IMG/VR virus record: IMGVR_UViG_3300033076_001145
Span: 64,001-128,000 of that record
DNA from: a virus
Taxonomy: Duplodnaviria > Caudoviricetes
Strand: one strand, 5' to 3'
DNA: 64,000 bases
Below the pieces are notes generated by a model. The model saw nothing but the letters and a program-made list of their open reading frames with translations. It was not told the DNA's origin and made no database searches. Shown here piece by piece: positions 38,034-47,835 of the stretch. Both the position numbers and the translations under genes were made by a program. Within the stretch, counting starts at the first letter, position 1; each line of letters begins with the position of its first letter.

Positions 38034-38363
38034 ATGAAATACATAATCAAAGAATCACAAATAAATAATGTTGTATTTTGGTATTTGGATAATCAGGATT
38101 TTATTAAGATTGAAAGGAGTCGTAATATTTATTTTGTTAATTCAGAAGGGGATGAATATGCTCAAATAAGACTTGATAAAGATGATGGCTGGTGTTTTAT
38201 TAATATTAATTTAATTAGAGAAATTTCTTCTTTCTTTTCTTTACAACCTTATGATTCTAAAGAAGTTATCGGCAGATGGGTTGATAATACCCTCCGAATG
38301 AAGGTCACAAACACCCAATATTCAAGAGGTAAAGGCCAGAAAAGGTTGATAATACCCAAATAA
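38034..38363 (+). CDS. Small paralog-family protein ending in a CRISPR-like repeat and spacer
   Basis: MKYIIKESQ...WVDNTLRMKVTNT plus a spacer-derived tail; near-identical to 38379-38696 except the tail. Confidence 0.75.
   Translation: MKYIIKESQINNVVFWYLDNQDFIKIERSRNIYFVNSEGDEYAQIRLDKDDGWCFININLIREISSFFSLQPYDSKEVIGRWVDNTLRMKVTNTQYSRGKGQKRLIIPK
38280..38357. CRISPR. CRISPR-like mini-array (36-nt repeat, 29-nt spacer, truncated repeat)
   Basis: GTTGATAATACCCTCCGAATGAAGGTCACAAACACC, then CAATATTCAAGAGGTAAAGGCCAGAAAAG, then GTTGATAATACCC. Confidence 0.6.
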
Positions 38364-38378
38364 CATATTTATAATAAT

Positions 38379-38696
38379 ATGAAATATCTAATTAAAGAGT
38401 CACAAATAAATAATGTTGTATTTTGGTATTTGGATAATCAGGATTTTATTCAGATTAATAAAGGTAATAAGATATATTTTGTTAATTCGGAGGGTGACGA
38501 ATATGCTCAAATTAGATATGATAAATCAGATGGCTGGTGTTTTATTAATATTAATTTAATTAATGAAATTTCTTCTTTCTTTTCTTTGCAACGCTCTGAT
38601 TCTGAAAAAATTATTGGTAAGTGGGTTGAGAATACCCTCCAAATGAAGGTCACAAACACCGCTTTGTTTGAAAAGTTGTATGATGATTTTGGTTGA
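38379..38696 (+). CDS. Small paralog-family protein ending in a CRISPR-like repeat and spacer
   Basis: MKYLIKESQ...WVENTLQMKVTNT plus a different tail. Confidence 0.75.
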   Translation: MKYLIKESQINNVVFWYLDNQDFIQINKGNKIYFVNSEGDEYAQIRYDKSDGWCFININLINEISSFFSLQRSDSEKIIGKWVENTLQMKVTNTALFEKLYDDFG

Positions 38697-39396: not shown

Positions 39397-41369
39397 CTAT
39401 CTTATGTCGTAGAAGTGTTTTACATTTCTTTTTGAATAACGGTCATTTAAAAAATCCCATAGTTGATTAAATCTGTTTTCATCATCACCACATTCTAATT
39501 CAAAGTTTTCACATACATCTTCTATTAAGTTTGATGTGACAAGATGATTAAATTTATATGGTGTCATTGCATTTAATTGTTTTTTCTTATCTGTGTATCT
39601 TTTTGAAGCCACCTTTAAAACATATTGATATATCTGTTCAAGAGTTTCCATATCTATCCTTCTTTTGAAGTAAATAGGTAGTTCTTTTTCTTCCCTCAAT
39701 ACTGATTCATTAATTACATTTCCCAAATTATCATATTTTAAAAGTTCAGTTTCTATAAAAACATCAGCATTTTTTTTCCTCACATCCCATTCAGTCATCC
39801 AAGTAGGACAAACAACAATATTTCCTGAAGTCCATTTATCAATATCTCTTGATATTTTTGTATCAAACCACGACTCAATGTTTGCCGCAGTATCATCAGA
39901 ATCAAAATAAATTTTAAGTAAAGGTTTATTATTATAAGTTGATTGTTCTATAAATGAAACCTCATCATATAAAACATGAATAATTTGCTTAACAAATTTT
40001 AATTTGTGTCCCTCGGATTCTTCCCTTAATATTCTTCTTATGTTTTCTTGTAGGTTCATATTTCTTCTTCTTTGTATTAACAATCTCCTATACTAACATC
40101 TATAGTATGTCCCCTCACTAAATTATTTCCTAATCTGTGTATAAGGGTGCTTATGTTATATATCGCTTGTCTTGTTTTTTGTTTGTTCACAAAACTATCA
40201 TCAGATAAATTAGGATAATATTTTGGTATTTCCACATATAGTTTTAACGAATGTAGAGTTGGTTTAATTTTAAAATCACATATATTTTCCATATCAGGAA
40301 CATCGAGTCTCATTATTGTATCAACAATGAAAATCATTTCCTTTTGTGTTCCAGTAAAACCAAGAACCTTATATAAATTTTCAACCCCTCCAAACATTTT
40401 TGCGGTTTGGTAAATACCCATATCAGAAACCAAATCTTTAATACTTTCTTGGTCTGAGGTCTCTTCCCTTAATATTGACTCATTTAACGGTTCCTCGTCC
40501 AATTTTGAATTTATGTATTTAATTAATGGCGCATCAAATTTATATACATCTTGGGACATGTTGTAATCTTTTAACAGTTCTTTGTTTGACGAAATAAGAT
40601 TTTGAATTGCGTCATAAAAGGCTTCACTTCTATTCTTTCCCCAACTTAAAGAAATTTTAACATCCCTAACCAACCGCTCAAGTTCATTAGCGGTCACCCT
40701 TCTTCTAATGTAATAAGGTAGTTCAGTTCCTTCCCTTAATATTCTTCTTATGGATTCTTGTAGGTTCATATTATGTATTTGACACTAATTTTTTATATCT
40801 ACTTTTAATTCTATCTTTATAGTAATCTTTTAAACTTTCCATAACCTCACCATACCATTGTGAATCTTCTGGCATTGTACTATATAGTTCGTAATGAATC
40901 CCATCCATTAAAATTGAAATTGTTACATCTATAAACCTATTTAAACTCATAATACTCCCATCTTCTTTATTTGTATTGCGTAACATATTTGATGACATAT
41001 CTAAAGACTCGCTAAACTCCCTCTCTAAATCATTGTTAGGGACTCTACGTCTAATCATCAGGATAGGTTTGGACTCTTCCCTTAGTATTCTTCTTATGGA
41101 TTCTTGCAGGTTCATTTCTTTTTCTTCTTAACACAATTAGGATATTTCTTACCAAACATTGTCTTCATTCCTTTTTGGGTATATCCCGCCCAACACTTTT
41201 CTTGGAGTTCAGATTTATGATTTTCATTTCCACATTTATGACATGTGTATGGGTCGTGTCCGCCTTCAGATAAATTCCAAGACCATCCACACTCCTGACA
41301 AACAATTTTTTTATTTTTGTTATGTAATTCTTCCAATATTATTCTTCTTATGGTCTGTTGTAAATTCAT
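39397..41369 (-). CDS. Four tandem genes with MNLQESIRRILREE leader (39397-40059, 40077-40769, 40771-41115, 41112-41369)
   Basis: Near-identical first 14 codons followed by different bodies; internal NESVLREE / NESILREE repeats. Confidence 0.7.
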
Positions 41370-41430
41370 ATTATTATAAATATCAATTAAAATAAACTGA
41401 AAAAAGTTTTTCAATTTAAGTTTTCTTCCC

Positions 41431-41442: not shown

Positions 41443-42228
41443 ATGGACAAAGTATTAAAAGATTTCATATTCCAACAACTATATGAAGAATTGAGTAATG
41501 TGGAGATTATTCCATATAACTACTCCATTTGGTTTATTGACCGAAAAAACGAATATTGGTATTTTGAATTTGAAAAGGATGGAATGTTGTGGTGGAGATA
41601 TGGATTCTTTCTCAGTTTTTTTAAAGTGTTCTCCCTTAGTGATACCGATTTTGAACCCATTCTATCCGCTTGGGTGGAAGAGGTCTTAAATCATAAGGTA
41701 TCTACAACAGGTCGGGAGAAACCAAGGCAACTTTTTCTGGTGGAAGAGGTCCTAAATCATAAGGTATCTACAACCCAAACTTGTTCATATGGTTTGCCTG
41801 AGTGGGTGGAAGAGGTCTTAAATCATAAGGTATCTACAACCCACAATTGCCACGATATTCTACCAGCAGTGGTGGAAGAGGTCCTAAATCATAAGGTATC
41901 TGCAACTCGGCATTTTGACAACCGTTCTCATCCGTTGGTGGAAGAGGTCTTAAATCATAAGGTATCTACAACTTCTCTGAATTCAGGCCAAATGATTGGT
42001 ATGGTGGAAGAGGTATTAAATCATAAGGTATCTACAACCCAAGTCAGGGAGAACAAAGAATCGGTCATGGTGGAAGAGGTCCTAAATTATAAGGTATCAA
42101 CAACTGAGGACCGCATTTCTCAAAACCCAAGGAAGGTGGAAGAGGTCTTAAATCATAAGGTATCCTCAACCTACTTCGATTGGGATAAAAAGGTAATTTT
42201 GGTGGAAGAGGTATTAAAACAAAAATAA
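41443..42228 (+). CDS. Array-containing protein 1: about 77-aa aromatic N-domain plus 8 x (VEEVLNHKVSTT + 10 variable aa)
   Basis: Open frame through the whole array; 22-aa period. Confidence 0.85.
   Translation: MDKVLKDFIFQQLYEELSNVEIIPYNYSIWFIDRKNEYWYFEFEKDGMLWWRYGFFLSFFKVFSLSDTDFEPILSAWVEEVLNHKVSTTGREKPRQLFLVEEVLNHKVSTTQTCSYGLPEWVEEVLNHKVSTTHNCHDILPAVVEEVLNHKVSATRHFDNRSHPLVEEVLNHKVSTTSLNSGQMIGMVEEVLNHKVSTTQVRENKESVMVEEVLNYKVSTTEDRISQNPRKVEEVLNHKVSSTYFDWDKKVILVEEVLKQK
41673..42218 (+). CRISPR. CRISPR-like array 1: 8 full repeats plus 1 truncated, 8 unique 30-nt spacers
   Basis: Repeat GGTGGAAGAGGTC(T/C)TAAATCATAAGGTATCTACAAC at 41673, 41739, 41805, 41871, 41937, 42003, 42069, 42135, truncated at 42201. 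Exact 66-nt period. Confidence 0.75.
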
Positions 42229-42229
42229 A

Positions 42230-43081
42230 ATGGATAAAATATTAAAAGATTTTATATATCAACAACTATACGAAGAATTGAGTAATGTGGAGATAATTCC
42301 ACATAAGGATTCCATTTGGTTTATTGACCGAGAAAATGAGTATTGGTATTTTGAATTTGATAAGTCAGGAACATTATGGTGGAGATATCATTTCTTTACC
42401 TCGTTTTTTGAGATGTTCTCTATGAAACGCAATGAGTTTACACCCATTCTGTCCGATTGGGTGGAAGAGGTCCTAAATTATAAGGTATCTACAACGACCT
42501 TGATTAGCAAAGGATGCACGGACGAGGTGGAAGAGGTCCTAAATCATAAGGTAACTACAACAAATTTACATACGACACCTGTCCCTGGTAAGGTGGAAGA
42601 GGTCTTAAATCATAAGGTATCCACAACTTTGTCAGCCAATCTCTTGGCACCTTTAATGGTGGAAGAGGTCCTAAATCATAAGGTATCTACAACACGCTGT
42701 ACGGTAATTTATACAACTTCGCTGGTGGAAGAGGTCTTAAATCATAAGGTATCCACATCCAACGCCAAAGAAATTTTACAAAAGCAAACGGTGGAGGATG
42801 TCCTAAATCATAAGGTATCTACAACAATGGCCATCCAATCTTGCAAAGAGAATTGGGTGGAAGAGGTCTTAAATCATAAGGTAATAGAAACCCAAACAGG
42901 GAACGCACCTCCATTGTCATTTGTGAAGGATGTTTTAGATTATAAAGTAACCAAAACTAAAAGAGATTCATCAGTTGATTGGGTTAATGTGGAAGAGATA
43001 TTAACTCATAAGGTATCCTCAACACAAGGATGGGGAGTTGAGGATTGTCACTTGGTTGGGAAGATATTAAATCAAAAATAA
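42230..43081 (+). CDS. Array-containing protein 2: same N-domain plus 9 repeat/variable units
   Basis: Open frame through the whole array; paralog of 41443-42228. Confidence 0.85.
   Translation: MDKILKDFIYQQLYEELSNVEIIPHKDSIWFIDRENEYWYFEFDKSGTLWWRYHFFTSFFEMFSMKRNEFTPILSDWVEEVLNYKVSTTTLISKGCTDEVEEVLNHKVTTTNLHTTPVPGKVEEVLNHKVSTTLSANLLAPLMVEEVLNHKVSTTRCTVIYTTSLVEEVLNHKVSTSNAKEILQKQTVEDVLNHKVSTTMAIQSCKENWVEEVLNHKVIETQTGNAPPLSFVKDVLDYKVTKTKRDSSVDWVNVEEILTHKVSSTQGWGVEDCHLVGKILNQK
42460..43073 (+). CRISPR. CRISPR-like array 2: 9 repeats plus 1 truncated, 9 unique 30-nt spacers, decaying toward the 3' end
   Basis: Repeats at 42460, 42526, 42592, 42658, 42724, 42790, 42856, 42922 (degenerate), 42988 (degenerate), 43054 (truncated and degenerate). 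Confidence 0.75.
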
Positions 43082-43082
43082 A

Positions 43083-43718
43083 ATGGATAAAATATTAAAA
43101 GATTTTATATATCAACAATTATACGAGGAGTTATCAAATGTGGAAATTATTCATCATGGTAAATCAATATGGTTTATTGATAGGGATAATAAATACTGGT
43201 ACTTTGAGCTTGACACATTTAGTAACACTTTATGGTGGAGGTATGATTTCTTTGTATCGTTTTTCAAGGTATTTTCAATGGATAATGAAAAATTCACTCC
43301 AATTATTGCAAATTGGGTTGCAAATATATTAAGTGGTGATTTTGAAGTGTCGAAAAAAGGTTCGGAATTAATTGATGAGGATGGTGTTATAAATAATATT
43401 CTAAATAATAATGGAGTTACTCTTATACCAGCAAATGATGGTATATTTAATAACAGTAGAGCGGAAATTGTAATCAAATCGGAACCTGCAAGTAGGGATT
43501 GGAAGATAGGTGAAGTATTAAAAACTATATCTAAAACCTCACCTCCTTGGGCCTCTCTTATGGTTAATCAAATATTAAAATCCTCATCATCAGTTACTGT
43601 AAATAAAGTATCCAGCTTAGGGAGTTTCCGACAACAATATCATGTGGATGAGGTATTAAAAACAAAATCGTTGTCATACTATCCTGATAGTGTAATAGAT
43701 TCGGTATTAAATAAATAA
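43083..43718 (+). CDS. Third paralog with the same N-domain and an eroded repeat region
   Basis: First about 75 aa match 42230. Remnants include WVANILS, IGEVLKT, MVNQILK..NKVSS, VDEVLKTK and IDSVLNK. Confidence 0.75.
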   Translation: MDKILKDFIYQQLYEELSNVEIIHHGKSIWFIDRDNKYWYFELDTFSNTLWWRYDFFVSFFKVFSMDNEKFTPIIANWVANILSGDFEVSKKGSELIDEDGVINNILNNNGVTLIPANDGIFNNSRAEIVIKSEPASRDWKIGEVLKTISKTSPPWASLMVNQILKSSSSVTVNKVSSLGSFRQQYHVDEVLKTKSLSYYPDSVIDSVLNK

Positions 43719-43723
43719 AGTAA

Positions 43724-45947
43724 TTAACGACATTCCCTCTGATAAGTATTCTTTAAGTGCTCGGTGAATTTTTTACTAGCATAATCCACCATTAACTTAT
43801 AAGACTCTCCCCACTCAACAGTATTTTCATCCATATCGGAGAAGAAGTCCCAATACATAGATGTTATGGCTTTTTCAATTACCGTTTCAACATATTGTTC
43901 CTTTGACAATCCACAAACATTATATTGAACTTTAACTTCTTTAATTGCAAAATCAATCTGCCAATCAATTGCGTGTAGTCTTCTTTTAACACTATTTGGG
44001 ACCTCTGTTGATTCTTTTAATACTCTCTTTATGGATTCTCTGAGTTTCATATTATTATAAATATATTTATATTTATTAAATTATGAAGGATGACAATCAA
44101 TTAGAGGAACTTGTATTTGCATATCTTAATGCTCAGGACTTTGAAATTATCCATAAAGAAGGTTATCATAAATACGCATACTTTGTTTATGACAAGGATG
44201 ACGCTCACGCTCAGATAATGTATCACAAAACCTTTGTTGTGATTTCTAAAGAGTTGTCGGATGAAATTAATTCTTATTTCAATGTTCCTTCAGGTGATAA
44301 CGCATCAGTTGAAATTAAAAATTGGATTGAGTCAAAGTTAAACACTAAAATTGATATTTGGGATGTTAAAATATATGGTGGAATGATGGGCGATGCCTGG
44401 TTATCTGTTAATGAGGATTAAAATATCATATCTTCATCCATTTTATCCTGAATATCTTGTTGAGCAATAGGTAATAGTTCATTCATAATGATGTCATATA
44501 CACCTGGTAAATAAACTTCATCATACCAACTAAACAACTCTTCAACACTATCAAATCTTGTTTTGTCTTGTAACACTTTGAAATAGTCTCCTTCCCCAGC
44601 GATTTCAACAACTACCTGTTTACCAATTTTTCTACTTCTATCCTCCAAAGAAAACCAATCAATTTCAACAGGTGTATAATCAAGTCCATCCCAAAATGGT
44701 GTGGCCATTGCCGTAATAAGTTCAGTATAATTAGGGAGAAATTCTCCCGTTTTAATCTCACCATCCCAATAAAAAATACCATCCAAATTTGTTTGTATAT
44801 TAAATTCATTGTAGGTATCTTTCAATTTACCTTTTTCTAAATTTTCAATTAATAATTCGTTCGCAATTTTTGAATTGATTTCAATTTTTGAAAGTTTGAC
44901 TAATTGTGTCGTACTAACACCAAGGTATTTTTTTGCTTCATATATACCAACCTCGTCAATTAGTTCAAGAATAGAATTTTGAAATTTATCTTCAGAATCT
45001 TCTCTTAATATTTTTCTTATGTTATCCCTTAGATTCATATCATTATAAATACCACTTAAAATGAAAACCCCACTGAGTAGCGAATTCAATGGGGTTAATG
45101 TAGCCTAAACTACAGCGGTCCTAAGCCCACTTTCTTTAATCATAATCTTTTAAATTATACTTATCAATTATCTGTTGGAATATTTGATTTCTATATGTTT
45201 TTGCTAATGTTTCTCTTTTTGGTATAAAAGAATATCCAAATCCCGAACTTCCACTCATTCCTACGACTCTCCAAACAACTCTTCCGTCTACGTAATTAAC
45301 TTTTCGTAATCTAGCATCAAAAGAATATTGCATGTCATTTTTCCTACCAAATTTAAACTTACCTAATTTTTTTTCATCTTTACCAAAATCCTCCAAATTT
45401 AAGTGTTGGACAAGATTGTCATCAAAATACATATTAACCTCATTACCTTCTCTAATATAATAAGGTCCAACATTTTCATTTTTGTAAAATTCCTTTAGGT
45501 TTCCACCATAAACCATTTTTATGTAGTTTGAGACACTACCAAACATTCTTTCAATCTGATACCAACCTATTTCATTATAAAGACCTTTTAAGTCGTTATC
45601 TGACGGCTCTTCAGTTTCTTCTTTTAATATTTTCTTAATTAAATCTTTCATTAAAAAAATATAAAAATTTTATTTGGTAATATACTATGTTTCTTTTGAA
45701 AGTATTTTTTCAAATATACCTCGTTATCGTCGTTGGTCATTTTTCTTATTTGTCTCAAAAACTCGTATTCAACCCATGTATTGTAGTTTATTTCACTAAC
45801 TTCAAACACAGTATTACCATTACTATCCTGAAACTTAATTTTGTCAGGAAACAATACTTGTTTTAACTCACCGTATTCATCTTCAACAAACATGTCAATT
45901 AAATTGACCATAGCTTCTTCAATATGTTTCTCTTTTGACTCACTCAT
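43724..45947. CDS. Cluster of hypothetical paralog-family genes (43724-44050 -, 44083-44421 +, 44418-45038 -, 45136-45651 -, 45651-45947 -)
   Basis: IKRVLKE / IRKILRE / IKKILKEE leaders; 44083 resembles 38034 (YLNAQDF..YFV...AQI...WIESKL). Confidence 0.55.
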
Positions 45948-47433: not shown

Positions 47434-47835
47434 ATGATAGATGAAATTGTTAAACAGTCAATATTTAATTTATTATTTGATGACATGGATGGTGCTGAGG
47501 TCATTGACTTAGGTAAATCCATTTGGGTAATTAATAAAGAAACAAGGTATTGGTATTTCGAATATCAAACCGACACCAAAAATCTTTGGTGGAGATATGA
47601 CTTTTTCTTATCATATTTAACACCATTTGGTATGAATGAGGTTTGGTATCACATTATATTCTCCGAGTTCTTTAATTACTTCCTAAATCAAAAACAATTT
47701 AATTCGGCTGAGGTTAAAAAACTATGTGAAGGTGACTTTGTTTCGATATTGGAGATGGACCAAGTGTTATCTGATGATAGAGAACTACAAATCAAAATGA
47801 AACAAATTATAGATGAAAAAAGGTCAGATGTCTGA
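47434..47835 (+). CDS. Array-free paralog of the 41443 N-domain
   Basis: SIWVINKETRYWYFEY...LWWRYDFFLS matches SIWFIDR.NEYWYFEF...LWWRY.FF.S. Confidence 0.7.
   Translation: MIDEIVKQSIFNLLFDDMDGAEVIDLGKSIWVINKETRYWYFEYQTDTKNLWWRYDFFLSYLTPFGMNEVWYHIIFSEFFNYFLNQKQFNSAEVKKLCEGDFVSILEMDQVLSDDRELQIKMKQIIDEKRSDV

Follow-up and report, generated by a model that had tools for sequence, protein, structure and literature searches.

CRISPR-like arrays within phage open reading frames carry 30-nt inserts of host origin that are kept in frame

Two tandem genes of a phage of freshwater Bacteroidota appear to be lengthened in frame by 30-nt pieces of host chromosomal DNA, which are held between CRISPR-type repeats and filtered as peptides. 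The genes lie in a 64,000-nt window (positions 64,001 to 128,000 of IMG/VR record IMGVR_UViG_3300033076_001145), part of a viral contig of 208,634 bp that is about 71% complete. The contig carries T4-like portal and capsid genes, and some of its proteins bear a Bacteroidota secretion tail. Each of the two ORFs encodes an N-terminal domain of about 78 residues followed by 66-nt units, in which a 36-nt repeat and a 30-nt spacer specify 12 constant and 10 variable residues. The small phage domain ends in 12 codons that double as a CRISPR-type repeat, and the leader of array 1 is the coding DNA of that domain. The genes, arrays and repeats are as follows.

41443..42228, + strand: gene 1, 261 aa, a domain of about 78 aa followed in frame by array 1
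41673..42200, + strand: array 1, eight 36-nt repeats (0-3 mismatches) and eight 30-nt spacers
41673-41708, + strand: first repeat copy of array 1
from 42201, + strand: truncated ninth repeat of array 1
42230..43081, + strand: gene 2, 283 aa, a paralogous N-terminal domain (76% identical) and array 2 in frame
42460..43053, + strand: array 2, nine repeats and nine 30-nt spacers
42922-42957, + strand: decayed repeat of array 2
43083..43718, + strand: gene 3, which carries the N-terminal domain a third time as a paralogue (61% identical) and in which no array can be recognised
47434..47835, + strand: further paralogue of the N-terminal domain (36% identical), without the repeat

The repeats of array 2 decay toward its 3′ end (2, 2, 1, 1, 2, 3, 5, 11 and 6 mismatches), and the decayed copy at 42922-42957 corrects the eight spacers originally counted there to nine, giving 17 in the window. 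The tail of gene 3 (43083-43718) retains only irregular remnants of the repeat peptide and is possibly a fully decayed array. Spacers all open with the third base of a Thr codon and close just short of the third base of the next codon, so the fixed mid-codon boundaries of the original prediction were borne out. Rfam gave no match, and Pfam no family for the proteins. The N-terminal domain was predicted with pLDDT above 90 as a helix, four strands and two helices; a fold search of the PDB returned nothing at E 0.001 (best Z 5.0, rmsd 2.6 over 55 residues), and searches of BFVD and Atlas returned only uncharacterised phage proteins. Two prediction runs gave no confident model of the repeat tail (pLDDT about 40).

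Base composition sets the spacers apart from the phage genes. The G+C counts reported earlier were reproduced (103/240 in array 1; 15, 12, 12 and 12 of 30 in the first four spacers of array 2), and the 16 spacers tested have 42.7% G+C against 32.0% for the phage genome, a value that none of 20,000 draws of 16 random phage coding 30-mers reached (mean 32.0%, sd 2.2). With amino acids fixed and phage codon usage applied, spacer GC3 is 41% against 23% expected (z 5.4), and the excess has z 9.3 when 76 spacers from 18 loci plus the genome are used. The claim that the spacers are not diverged phage codons thus survives control for amino-acid composition. No second copy of a spacer with fewer than 8 mismatches was found in the phage genome, and the candidate explanation by self-derived spacers or diverged phage codons was rejected on composition and on this lack of a second copy.

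The search for a source began with an exact scan of GTDB genomes using 26 nt of the first spacer, and was then continued in the matched genus and family. Its single match was in miaB of a Bacteroidota MAG, where 29/30 positions of the entire spacer agree. A host match was called confident at 0-3 mismatches, and matches at 26/30 were left out. By this rule, core chromosomal genes from a freshwater Bacteroidota family account for 6 of the 17 spacers in the window, with identity at 27-30 of 30 nt; the matched spacers, including the weak ones, are listed here.

41709..41738, + strand: spacer A1-1, 29/30 to host miaB, opposite strand
41973..42002, + strand: spacer A1-5, 28/30 to the undecaprenyl diphosphate synthase gene (uppS) of a sister-genus MAG, opposite strand
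42039..42068, + strand: spacer A1-6, 27/30 to secA, opposite strand, with 3/3 differences synonymous in the host frame
42105..42134, + strand: spacer A1-7, 29/30 to a CitMHS / sodium:sulfate symporter gene, opposite strand
42171..42200, + strand: spacer A1-8, weak (26/30), same strand as the host gene, outside the confident set
42628..42657, + strand: spacer A2-3, 28/30 to an EPSP synthase (aroA-family) gene, opposite strand
42694..42789, + strand: spacers A2-4 and A2-5, weak (26/30), A2-5 with two rival matches, outside the confident set
42826..42855, + strand: spacer A2-6, 30/30 to radC in three host-genus MAGs, opposite strand

Each of the six confident spacers in the window runs antisense to its host gene; eight of the 17 have no match, and three further spacers match at 26/30. 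Including 25 clusters from sister phages in addition to the six in the window, 31 spacer clusters match host-family MAGs with 0-3 mismatches, and the arrays of related phages point to the same host genus or to its sister genus. By chance about 3e-4 matches per spacer would be expected at 3 mismatches over 236 genomes. The host matches stop at the spacer edges and their flanks do not run on into the repeat, and the pieces were taken from either strand and in any frame. Among the mismatches, 21/28 are synonymous in the host frame, which points to allelic differences, as if the donor were an unsampled strain. Spacer G+C (41.8%) is close to that of host coding DNA (42.4%). The spacers almost certainly derive from the host chromosome. 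The original prediction had named the host chromosome or other mobile elements as the source: the former is upheld by the 6/17 window spacers and the 31 clusters, and the latter gained no support, as nothing significant was found among GenBank phages or plasmids. In IMG/VR, no exact match was obtained for two leader-side spacers that lack a host match.

The link between phage and host is independently supported by a 746-bp stretch of another phage gene that is 93% identical to DNA of a host-genus MAG. This gene (L214 561-1574, that is, G000:C1:152,860-153,873, and L222) encodes a product with a probable Bacteroidota secretion tail, and a paralogue of it lies at G000:C1:160,768-161,799. The copy in the MAG (G013:C52) adjoins a paralogue and lies in an island of 28-36% G+C within DNA of 46-49% G+C, which suggests a recent exchange of genes. 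The host is assigned only as a freshwater Bacteroidota genus (14 genomes, 1.5-2.8 Mb, about 42% G+C), which we take not to fit Chryseobacterium despite the submitter's title 'uncultured Chryseobacterium sp.' on one MAG.

Scans of viral and metagenome contigs yielded 154 arrays in 111 loci, with 259 spacer clusters, and these arrays behave like CRISPR arrays in several respects. Singleton spacers make up 43% of first (5′) positions against 8% of last (3′) positions, repeat mismatches climb from 2.7 to 6.5 toward the 3′ end, and spacer order conflicts in only 3/266 pairs. These patterns show that new spacers enter mostly next to the N-terminal domain, and that older ones degenerate or are lost by deletion. 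Certain spacers stand behind more than one leader, and cassettes therefore also move between paralogues. The arrays are short (2-11 units). The gap between repeats is exactly 30 nt in 743/767 cases and the remainder all keep frame; none of the 767 gaps is 29 or 31 nt long, whereas 6/48 spacers of host arrays are 29-mers. In five distant lineages the 36+30 geometry is preserved and the repeat termini have hardly changed, although the interior of the repeat has diverged: the ends follow G(G/T)TG..CAAC, with GGTG..CAAC here and GTTG..CAAC in one distant lineage. The first Val codon of the repeat is GTG in 381/413 copies, compared with 10% in phage genes. The repeat hairpin, which in type VI-B is a stem of GUUG and CAAC ends with a U-rich loop, is weak here, no better than that of shuffled sequences (z -0.4), and synonymous change in it is tolerated.

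Because host matches end at the spacer edges, gaps are so uniform in length and five lineages retain both geometry and termini, the data support boundaries that are set at the DNA level, in line with this part of the original prediction, which had proposed an integrase-like ruler. Capture by a repeat-duplicating, ruler-type integrase is very probable. One hallmark of CRISPR is missing, since leader and array are coding here rather than non-coding. In the arrays of L003, L005, L012 and L014 one repeat copy has a 6-nt in-frame insertion that gives a 72-nt step; this insertion travels with its spacer across phages, and all observed length changes are multiples of three.

The arrays also appear to be read and filtered as protein. 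None of 235 spacer clusters contains an in-frame stop, compared with 28-50% in the other five frames; host 30-mers placed in the same frame contain a stop in 34% of cases, so that 0/235 has P of about 1e-43. Outside the window, an unbroken ORF contains the array in 152/152 cases. Where variants of one spacer were compared, 48/91 changes are synonymous against 24.6 expected (pN/pS 0.26), and bootstrapping over clusters gives a synonymous share of 0.41-0.65 against 0.27 under neutrality; host and phage wobble positions coincide in about 41% of spacers, and tracking of host alleles could inflate this excess. For spacers known to lie in other frames, six changes are available, five non-synonymous and one synonymous. 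The hydrophobicity bias and the residue preferences are independent of this wobble-position caveat: spacer peptides are less hydrophobic than the stop-filtered host pool (p 2e-7), Gly is enriched at loop position 5 (33 vs 11), Pro is enriched at position 6 and Asp/Glu at positions 1 and 4, and 151 loops of distant homologues show the same residue peaks. Old spacers are common to up to about 29 sampled arrays and change mostly synonymously. These data show that persistence is restricted to in-frame, stop-free inserts that give a soluble peptide, and selection on the spacers at the protein level is highly likely. It had been stated that the spacers share no evident peptide pattern, which is true by eye for 16 spacers and fails for 235, where a weak but replicated pattern emerges. 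The description of the spacers as foreign DNA rather than phage codons stands as to foreign origin and is incomplete in that the inserts are also filtered as peptides; both descriptions are true.

As for the enzyme that writes the arrays, Cas1, Cas2, Cas4 and Cas13b were not found among the matches listed for up to six related phage records that are 37-82% complete. In the host genus, cas9-cas1-cas2 of type II-C occurs in 2/14 MAGs, and similar II-C arrays are also present in the sister genus. The host II-C arrays have spacers of 30 nt (42) or 29 nt (6) and 47-nt repeats that share only their ends with the 36-nt phage repeat. Their leader ends in TTTG and their repeat reads G(T/G)TG..CAAC; 44/58 phage junctions read TTG and then GGTG, of which the TG at the leader-repeat junction is also forced by a conserved Trp codon. 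A pyrimidine stands at position -3 of the protospacer in 26/31 cases (held-out 9/11). A YTN flank motif was rejected, as it fitted 12/20 of the first protospacers and then 2/11 held-out ones; a looser YYN motif, defined after both sets had been seen, fits 20/31. Host II-C spacers had no match to these phages, and no protospacer was found for them that would give the host PAM. The II-C Cas1 of F. columnare supplies a 36-nt VI-B array with spacers in trans, the host genome being among the sources; where a species has II-C repeats about 11 bp longer, how VI-B arrays are filled in trans was left open (PMC8092290). Both repeats are 36 nt long in F. columnare (PMC8092290), whereas the II-C repeat of the present host is 47 nt; we infer that this 11-bp difference amounts to about one helical turn. 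Overall, the host type II-C Cas1-Cas2 is moderately likely to be the writer, and the main alternative, a phage integrase encoded in the unsequenced part of the genome, appears rather unlikely.

Several features of the host II-C loci were noted besides. The repeat of one array (L249, G039:C13) starts with GGTG, as the phage repeat does, instead of GTTG, and MAG G039 belongs to the genus matched by spacers of the sister phages. The neighbourhood of the host cas9 (L078 7739-8800, L077 5193-6280) contains 97-98-nt tandem repeats with short palindromes, and a small gene beside cas9 resembles, by eye, a REP-associated tyrosine transposase and may encode one.

A second repeat family, family B, is found in distant paralogues, two of which lie in the window.

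38034..38363, + strand: family B gene, distant paralogue (25% identical) with a different 36-nt repeat at its end; repeat 38280-38315, 29-nt spacer 38316-38344 (27/29 to host glmS), truncated repeat
38379..38696, + strand: family B gene; repeat 38625-38660, 31-nt spacer 38661-38691 (30/31 to a large uncharacterised host ORF)

In total the family comprises seven genes with eight repeat-spacer units, five of the genes being located outside the window (G000:C1:152,400-159,360, L214), and its proteins are paralogues of 22-30% identity. Four of the eight spacers match the same host genus, two of them at 31/31. The spacers are 29-31 nt long, 7/8 differ from 30 nt in length, and one is located downstream of a stop codon. 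These lengths and the unit past the stop are not explained by a protein model, and translation is not the sole constraint there. The first seven bases of the reverse complement of the family B repeat are common to the II-C repeat of MAG G039.

The reading that we favour, to which we give an even chance overall, is a protein-diversifying system written by a host integrase. The repeat-like end of the phage domain would serve as the insertion site for 30-nt host fragments. The host II-C Cas1-Cas2 would act during infection of strains that carry it and would recognise a leader junction and repeat ends resembling its own. The product would consist of the conserved domain followed by a tail of modules of 22 residues, ten of which in each module form a new host-derived peptide, and this tail would act as a variable binding surface under selection. 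That what matters is the protein, as such a surface, is slightly favoured given the rest. A more specific version is tentative: a natural peptide library in which random host 30-mers become new 10-residue loops, useful binders are kept and the array is a dated record. Benefit to the phage as a peptide library we place between tentative and evenly balanced. Stops, hydrophobic runs and amino-acid changes would also be selected against in a tail that is merely tolerated, and such selection does not prove a benefit.

We rank the protein-diversifying reading ahead of a tolerated by-product and, after that, of guide RNAs as the primary function. As a by-product, the arrays would mark an off-target site of a CRISPR integrase at which harmless inserts survive, with neither peptides nor guides being beneficial. 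The targets are indeed unrelated housekeeping genes on both strands (19/31 antisense, not significant), paralogues without arrays exist, the tail is not predicted to fold and the arrays remain small. However, a costly accident should vanish by synonymous change, and the conservation of geometry and termini at the DNA level, rare codons included, across lineages with diverged repeats therefore fits a by-product poorly; nor are the long persistence of old spacers under mostly synonymous change and the replicated Gly, Pro and Asp/Glu preferences expected from it, and we regard it as unlikely. Guide RNAs would require that the mRNA, or else an antisense RNA, is processed into guides that a Cas13b-like or Cas9 effector can use, and this effector would silence or cut host genes or titrate host CRISPR immunity, with the frame kept for message stability. 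Type VI-B arrays have the same 36+30 geometry and G(G/T)TG..CAAC ends (10.1101/092577), all six confident window spacers are antisense, the old spacers A1-7 and A2-6 still match the host at 29-30/30, and Cas-less arrays with host-targeting spacers are described for huge phages (PMC7162821). Family B also keeps this explanation alive, because its units are 29-31 nt long, need not remain in frame and in one case lie beyond a stop. Against it, the antisense bias of 14/20 fell to 5/11 in held-out spacers (pooled 19/31, p 0.2; 49% expected), so that the retention of transcript-complementary spacers known from type VI-B is not seen here. Strand counts of this kind bear on an RNA-targeting effector, and a DNA-targeting role is compatible with the spacer strands. 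Cas13b was not found in 236 host-family MAGs or four phage records, in a search for which no positive control scored, and a 36-nt array with these ends was absent from the 236 MAGs. The repeat hairpin does not exceed shuffles, and residue-level selection on the spacers would be left unexplained. A primary role as guides is accordingly doubtful. A coding tandem repeat with mutated hypervariable loops, that is, a false CRISPR, or a diversity-generating retroelement (DGR) would agree with a repeat unit that is a whole number of codons and which begins with residues of the conserved domain that characterises a large protein family (674 clusters at 50% identity for the N-terminal domain/repeat proteins, many with 22-residue periodicity). 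Yet the spacers copy host genes almost exactly, in frames that bear no relation to the phage frame, and have the composition of the host, no template copy is present in the genome, and no reverse transcriptase (RVT_1) was found in five incomplete records in which the controls scored. Origin of the loops by mutation of a coding tandem repeat is refuted by 30/30 host gene matches with non-matching flanks, and this whole class is highly improbable.

DGRs and other diversifying cassettes combine a constant scaffold with hypervariable segments, which arise by adenine mutagenesis of a template or by shuffling of the element's own cassettes. The present genes resemble DGRs in being phage protein genes with such a scaffold and such segments, and differ in that variation consists of captured foreign DNA added as whole modules, with no reverse transcriptase or template found. 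The mature crRNA of type VI-B consists of a 30-nt spacer and a 36-nt repeat (10.1101/092577). The F. columnare VI-B arrays share with those described here the 36-nt repeat, the 30-nt spacer and the GTTG-like/CAAC ends (PMC8092290; 10.1101/092577), the lack of adjacent cas1/cas2, and spacers taken also from the host genome on both strands. Unlike them, the arrays here are in a phage and inside an ORF, the leader is coding, the repeat encodes part of a domain, and cas13b was not found in the records searched. Cas-less arrays of huge phages are likewise compact, occur in large phages, lack adaptation genes and in some cases have host-targeting spacers; they have a median of six repeats and are presumed to use host Cas proteins (PMC7162821). 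Their described roles are those of guide RNAs with host-like repeats, and the passages on them make no mention of in-frame translation or peptide selection (PMC7162821). Phage CRISPR-like regulatory RNAs and mini-arrays are similar as repeat-spacer units that borrow the host CRISPR machinery, but they are non-coding and aimed at the regulation of cas or toxin genes, whereas the targets here are scattered housekeeping genes; Cas13, VI-B and terms in Bacteroid- go unmentioned in that paper (10.1101/2024.10.29.618823). False CRISPRs also have a repeat-spacer appearance inside a coding gene without nearby cas genes, yet they lack diverse spacers, while those here are diverse, polarised and have protospacers (PMC5294841). 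Our literature search, in which the full text of most subscription papers was outside reach, turned up no account of arrays that undergo in-frame translation and selection as peptides. Given this and the layout shown above, we consider gene extension by in-frame, CRISPR-style capture of host DNA to be new, no published description having been found.

CRISPR adaptation is familiar as the means by which guides are stored; in these phages, a process bearing its hallmarks seems to make a protein longer and more variable. If true, new coding sequence would arise by a path not described before, and diversity-generating systems would gain a new type. With these arrays one can also test whether a 36-nt repeat is usable by an integrase whose native repeats are 47 nt long, which is the question that remained open for VI-B (PMC8092290). 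They further provide 235 natural, age-ordered examples of selection on random peptides in a fixed scaffold. Finally, the spacers name the host genus of uncultured lake phages and can thus serve for host assignment.

Two further observations concern the surroundings of the arrays. The minus-strand genes at 39397-41414 and 43724-45651 have a common start of about 50 nt (repeat family D4), which encodes a shared N-terminal motif on otherwise unrelated minus-strand-encoded proteins. The region G000:C1:1-64,000 (L255-L258) contains many sugar-nucleotide and glycosyltransferase genes together with polyphosphate kinase 2, PhoH and one WYL-domain match.
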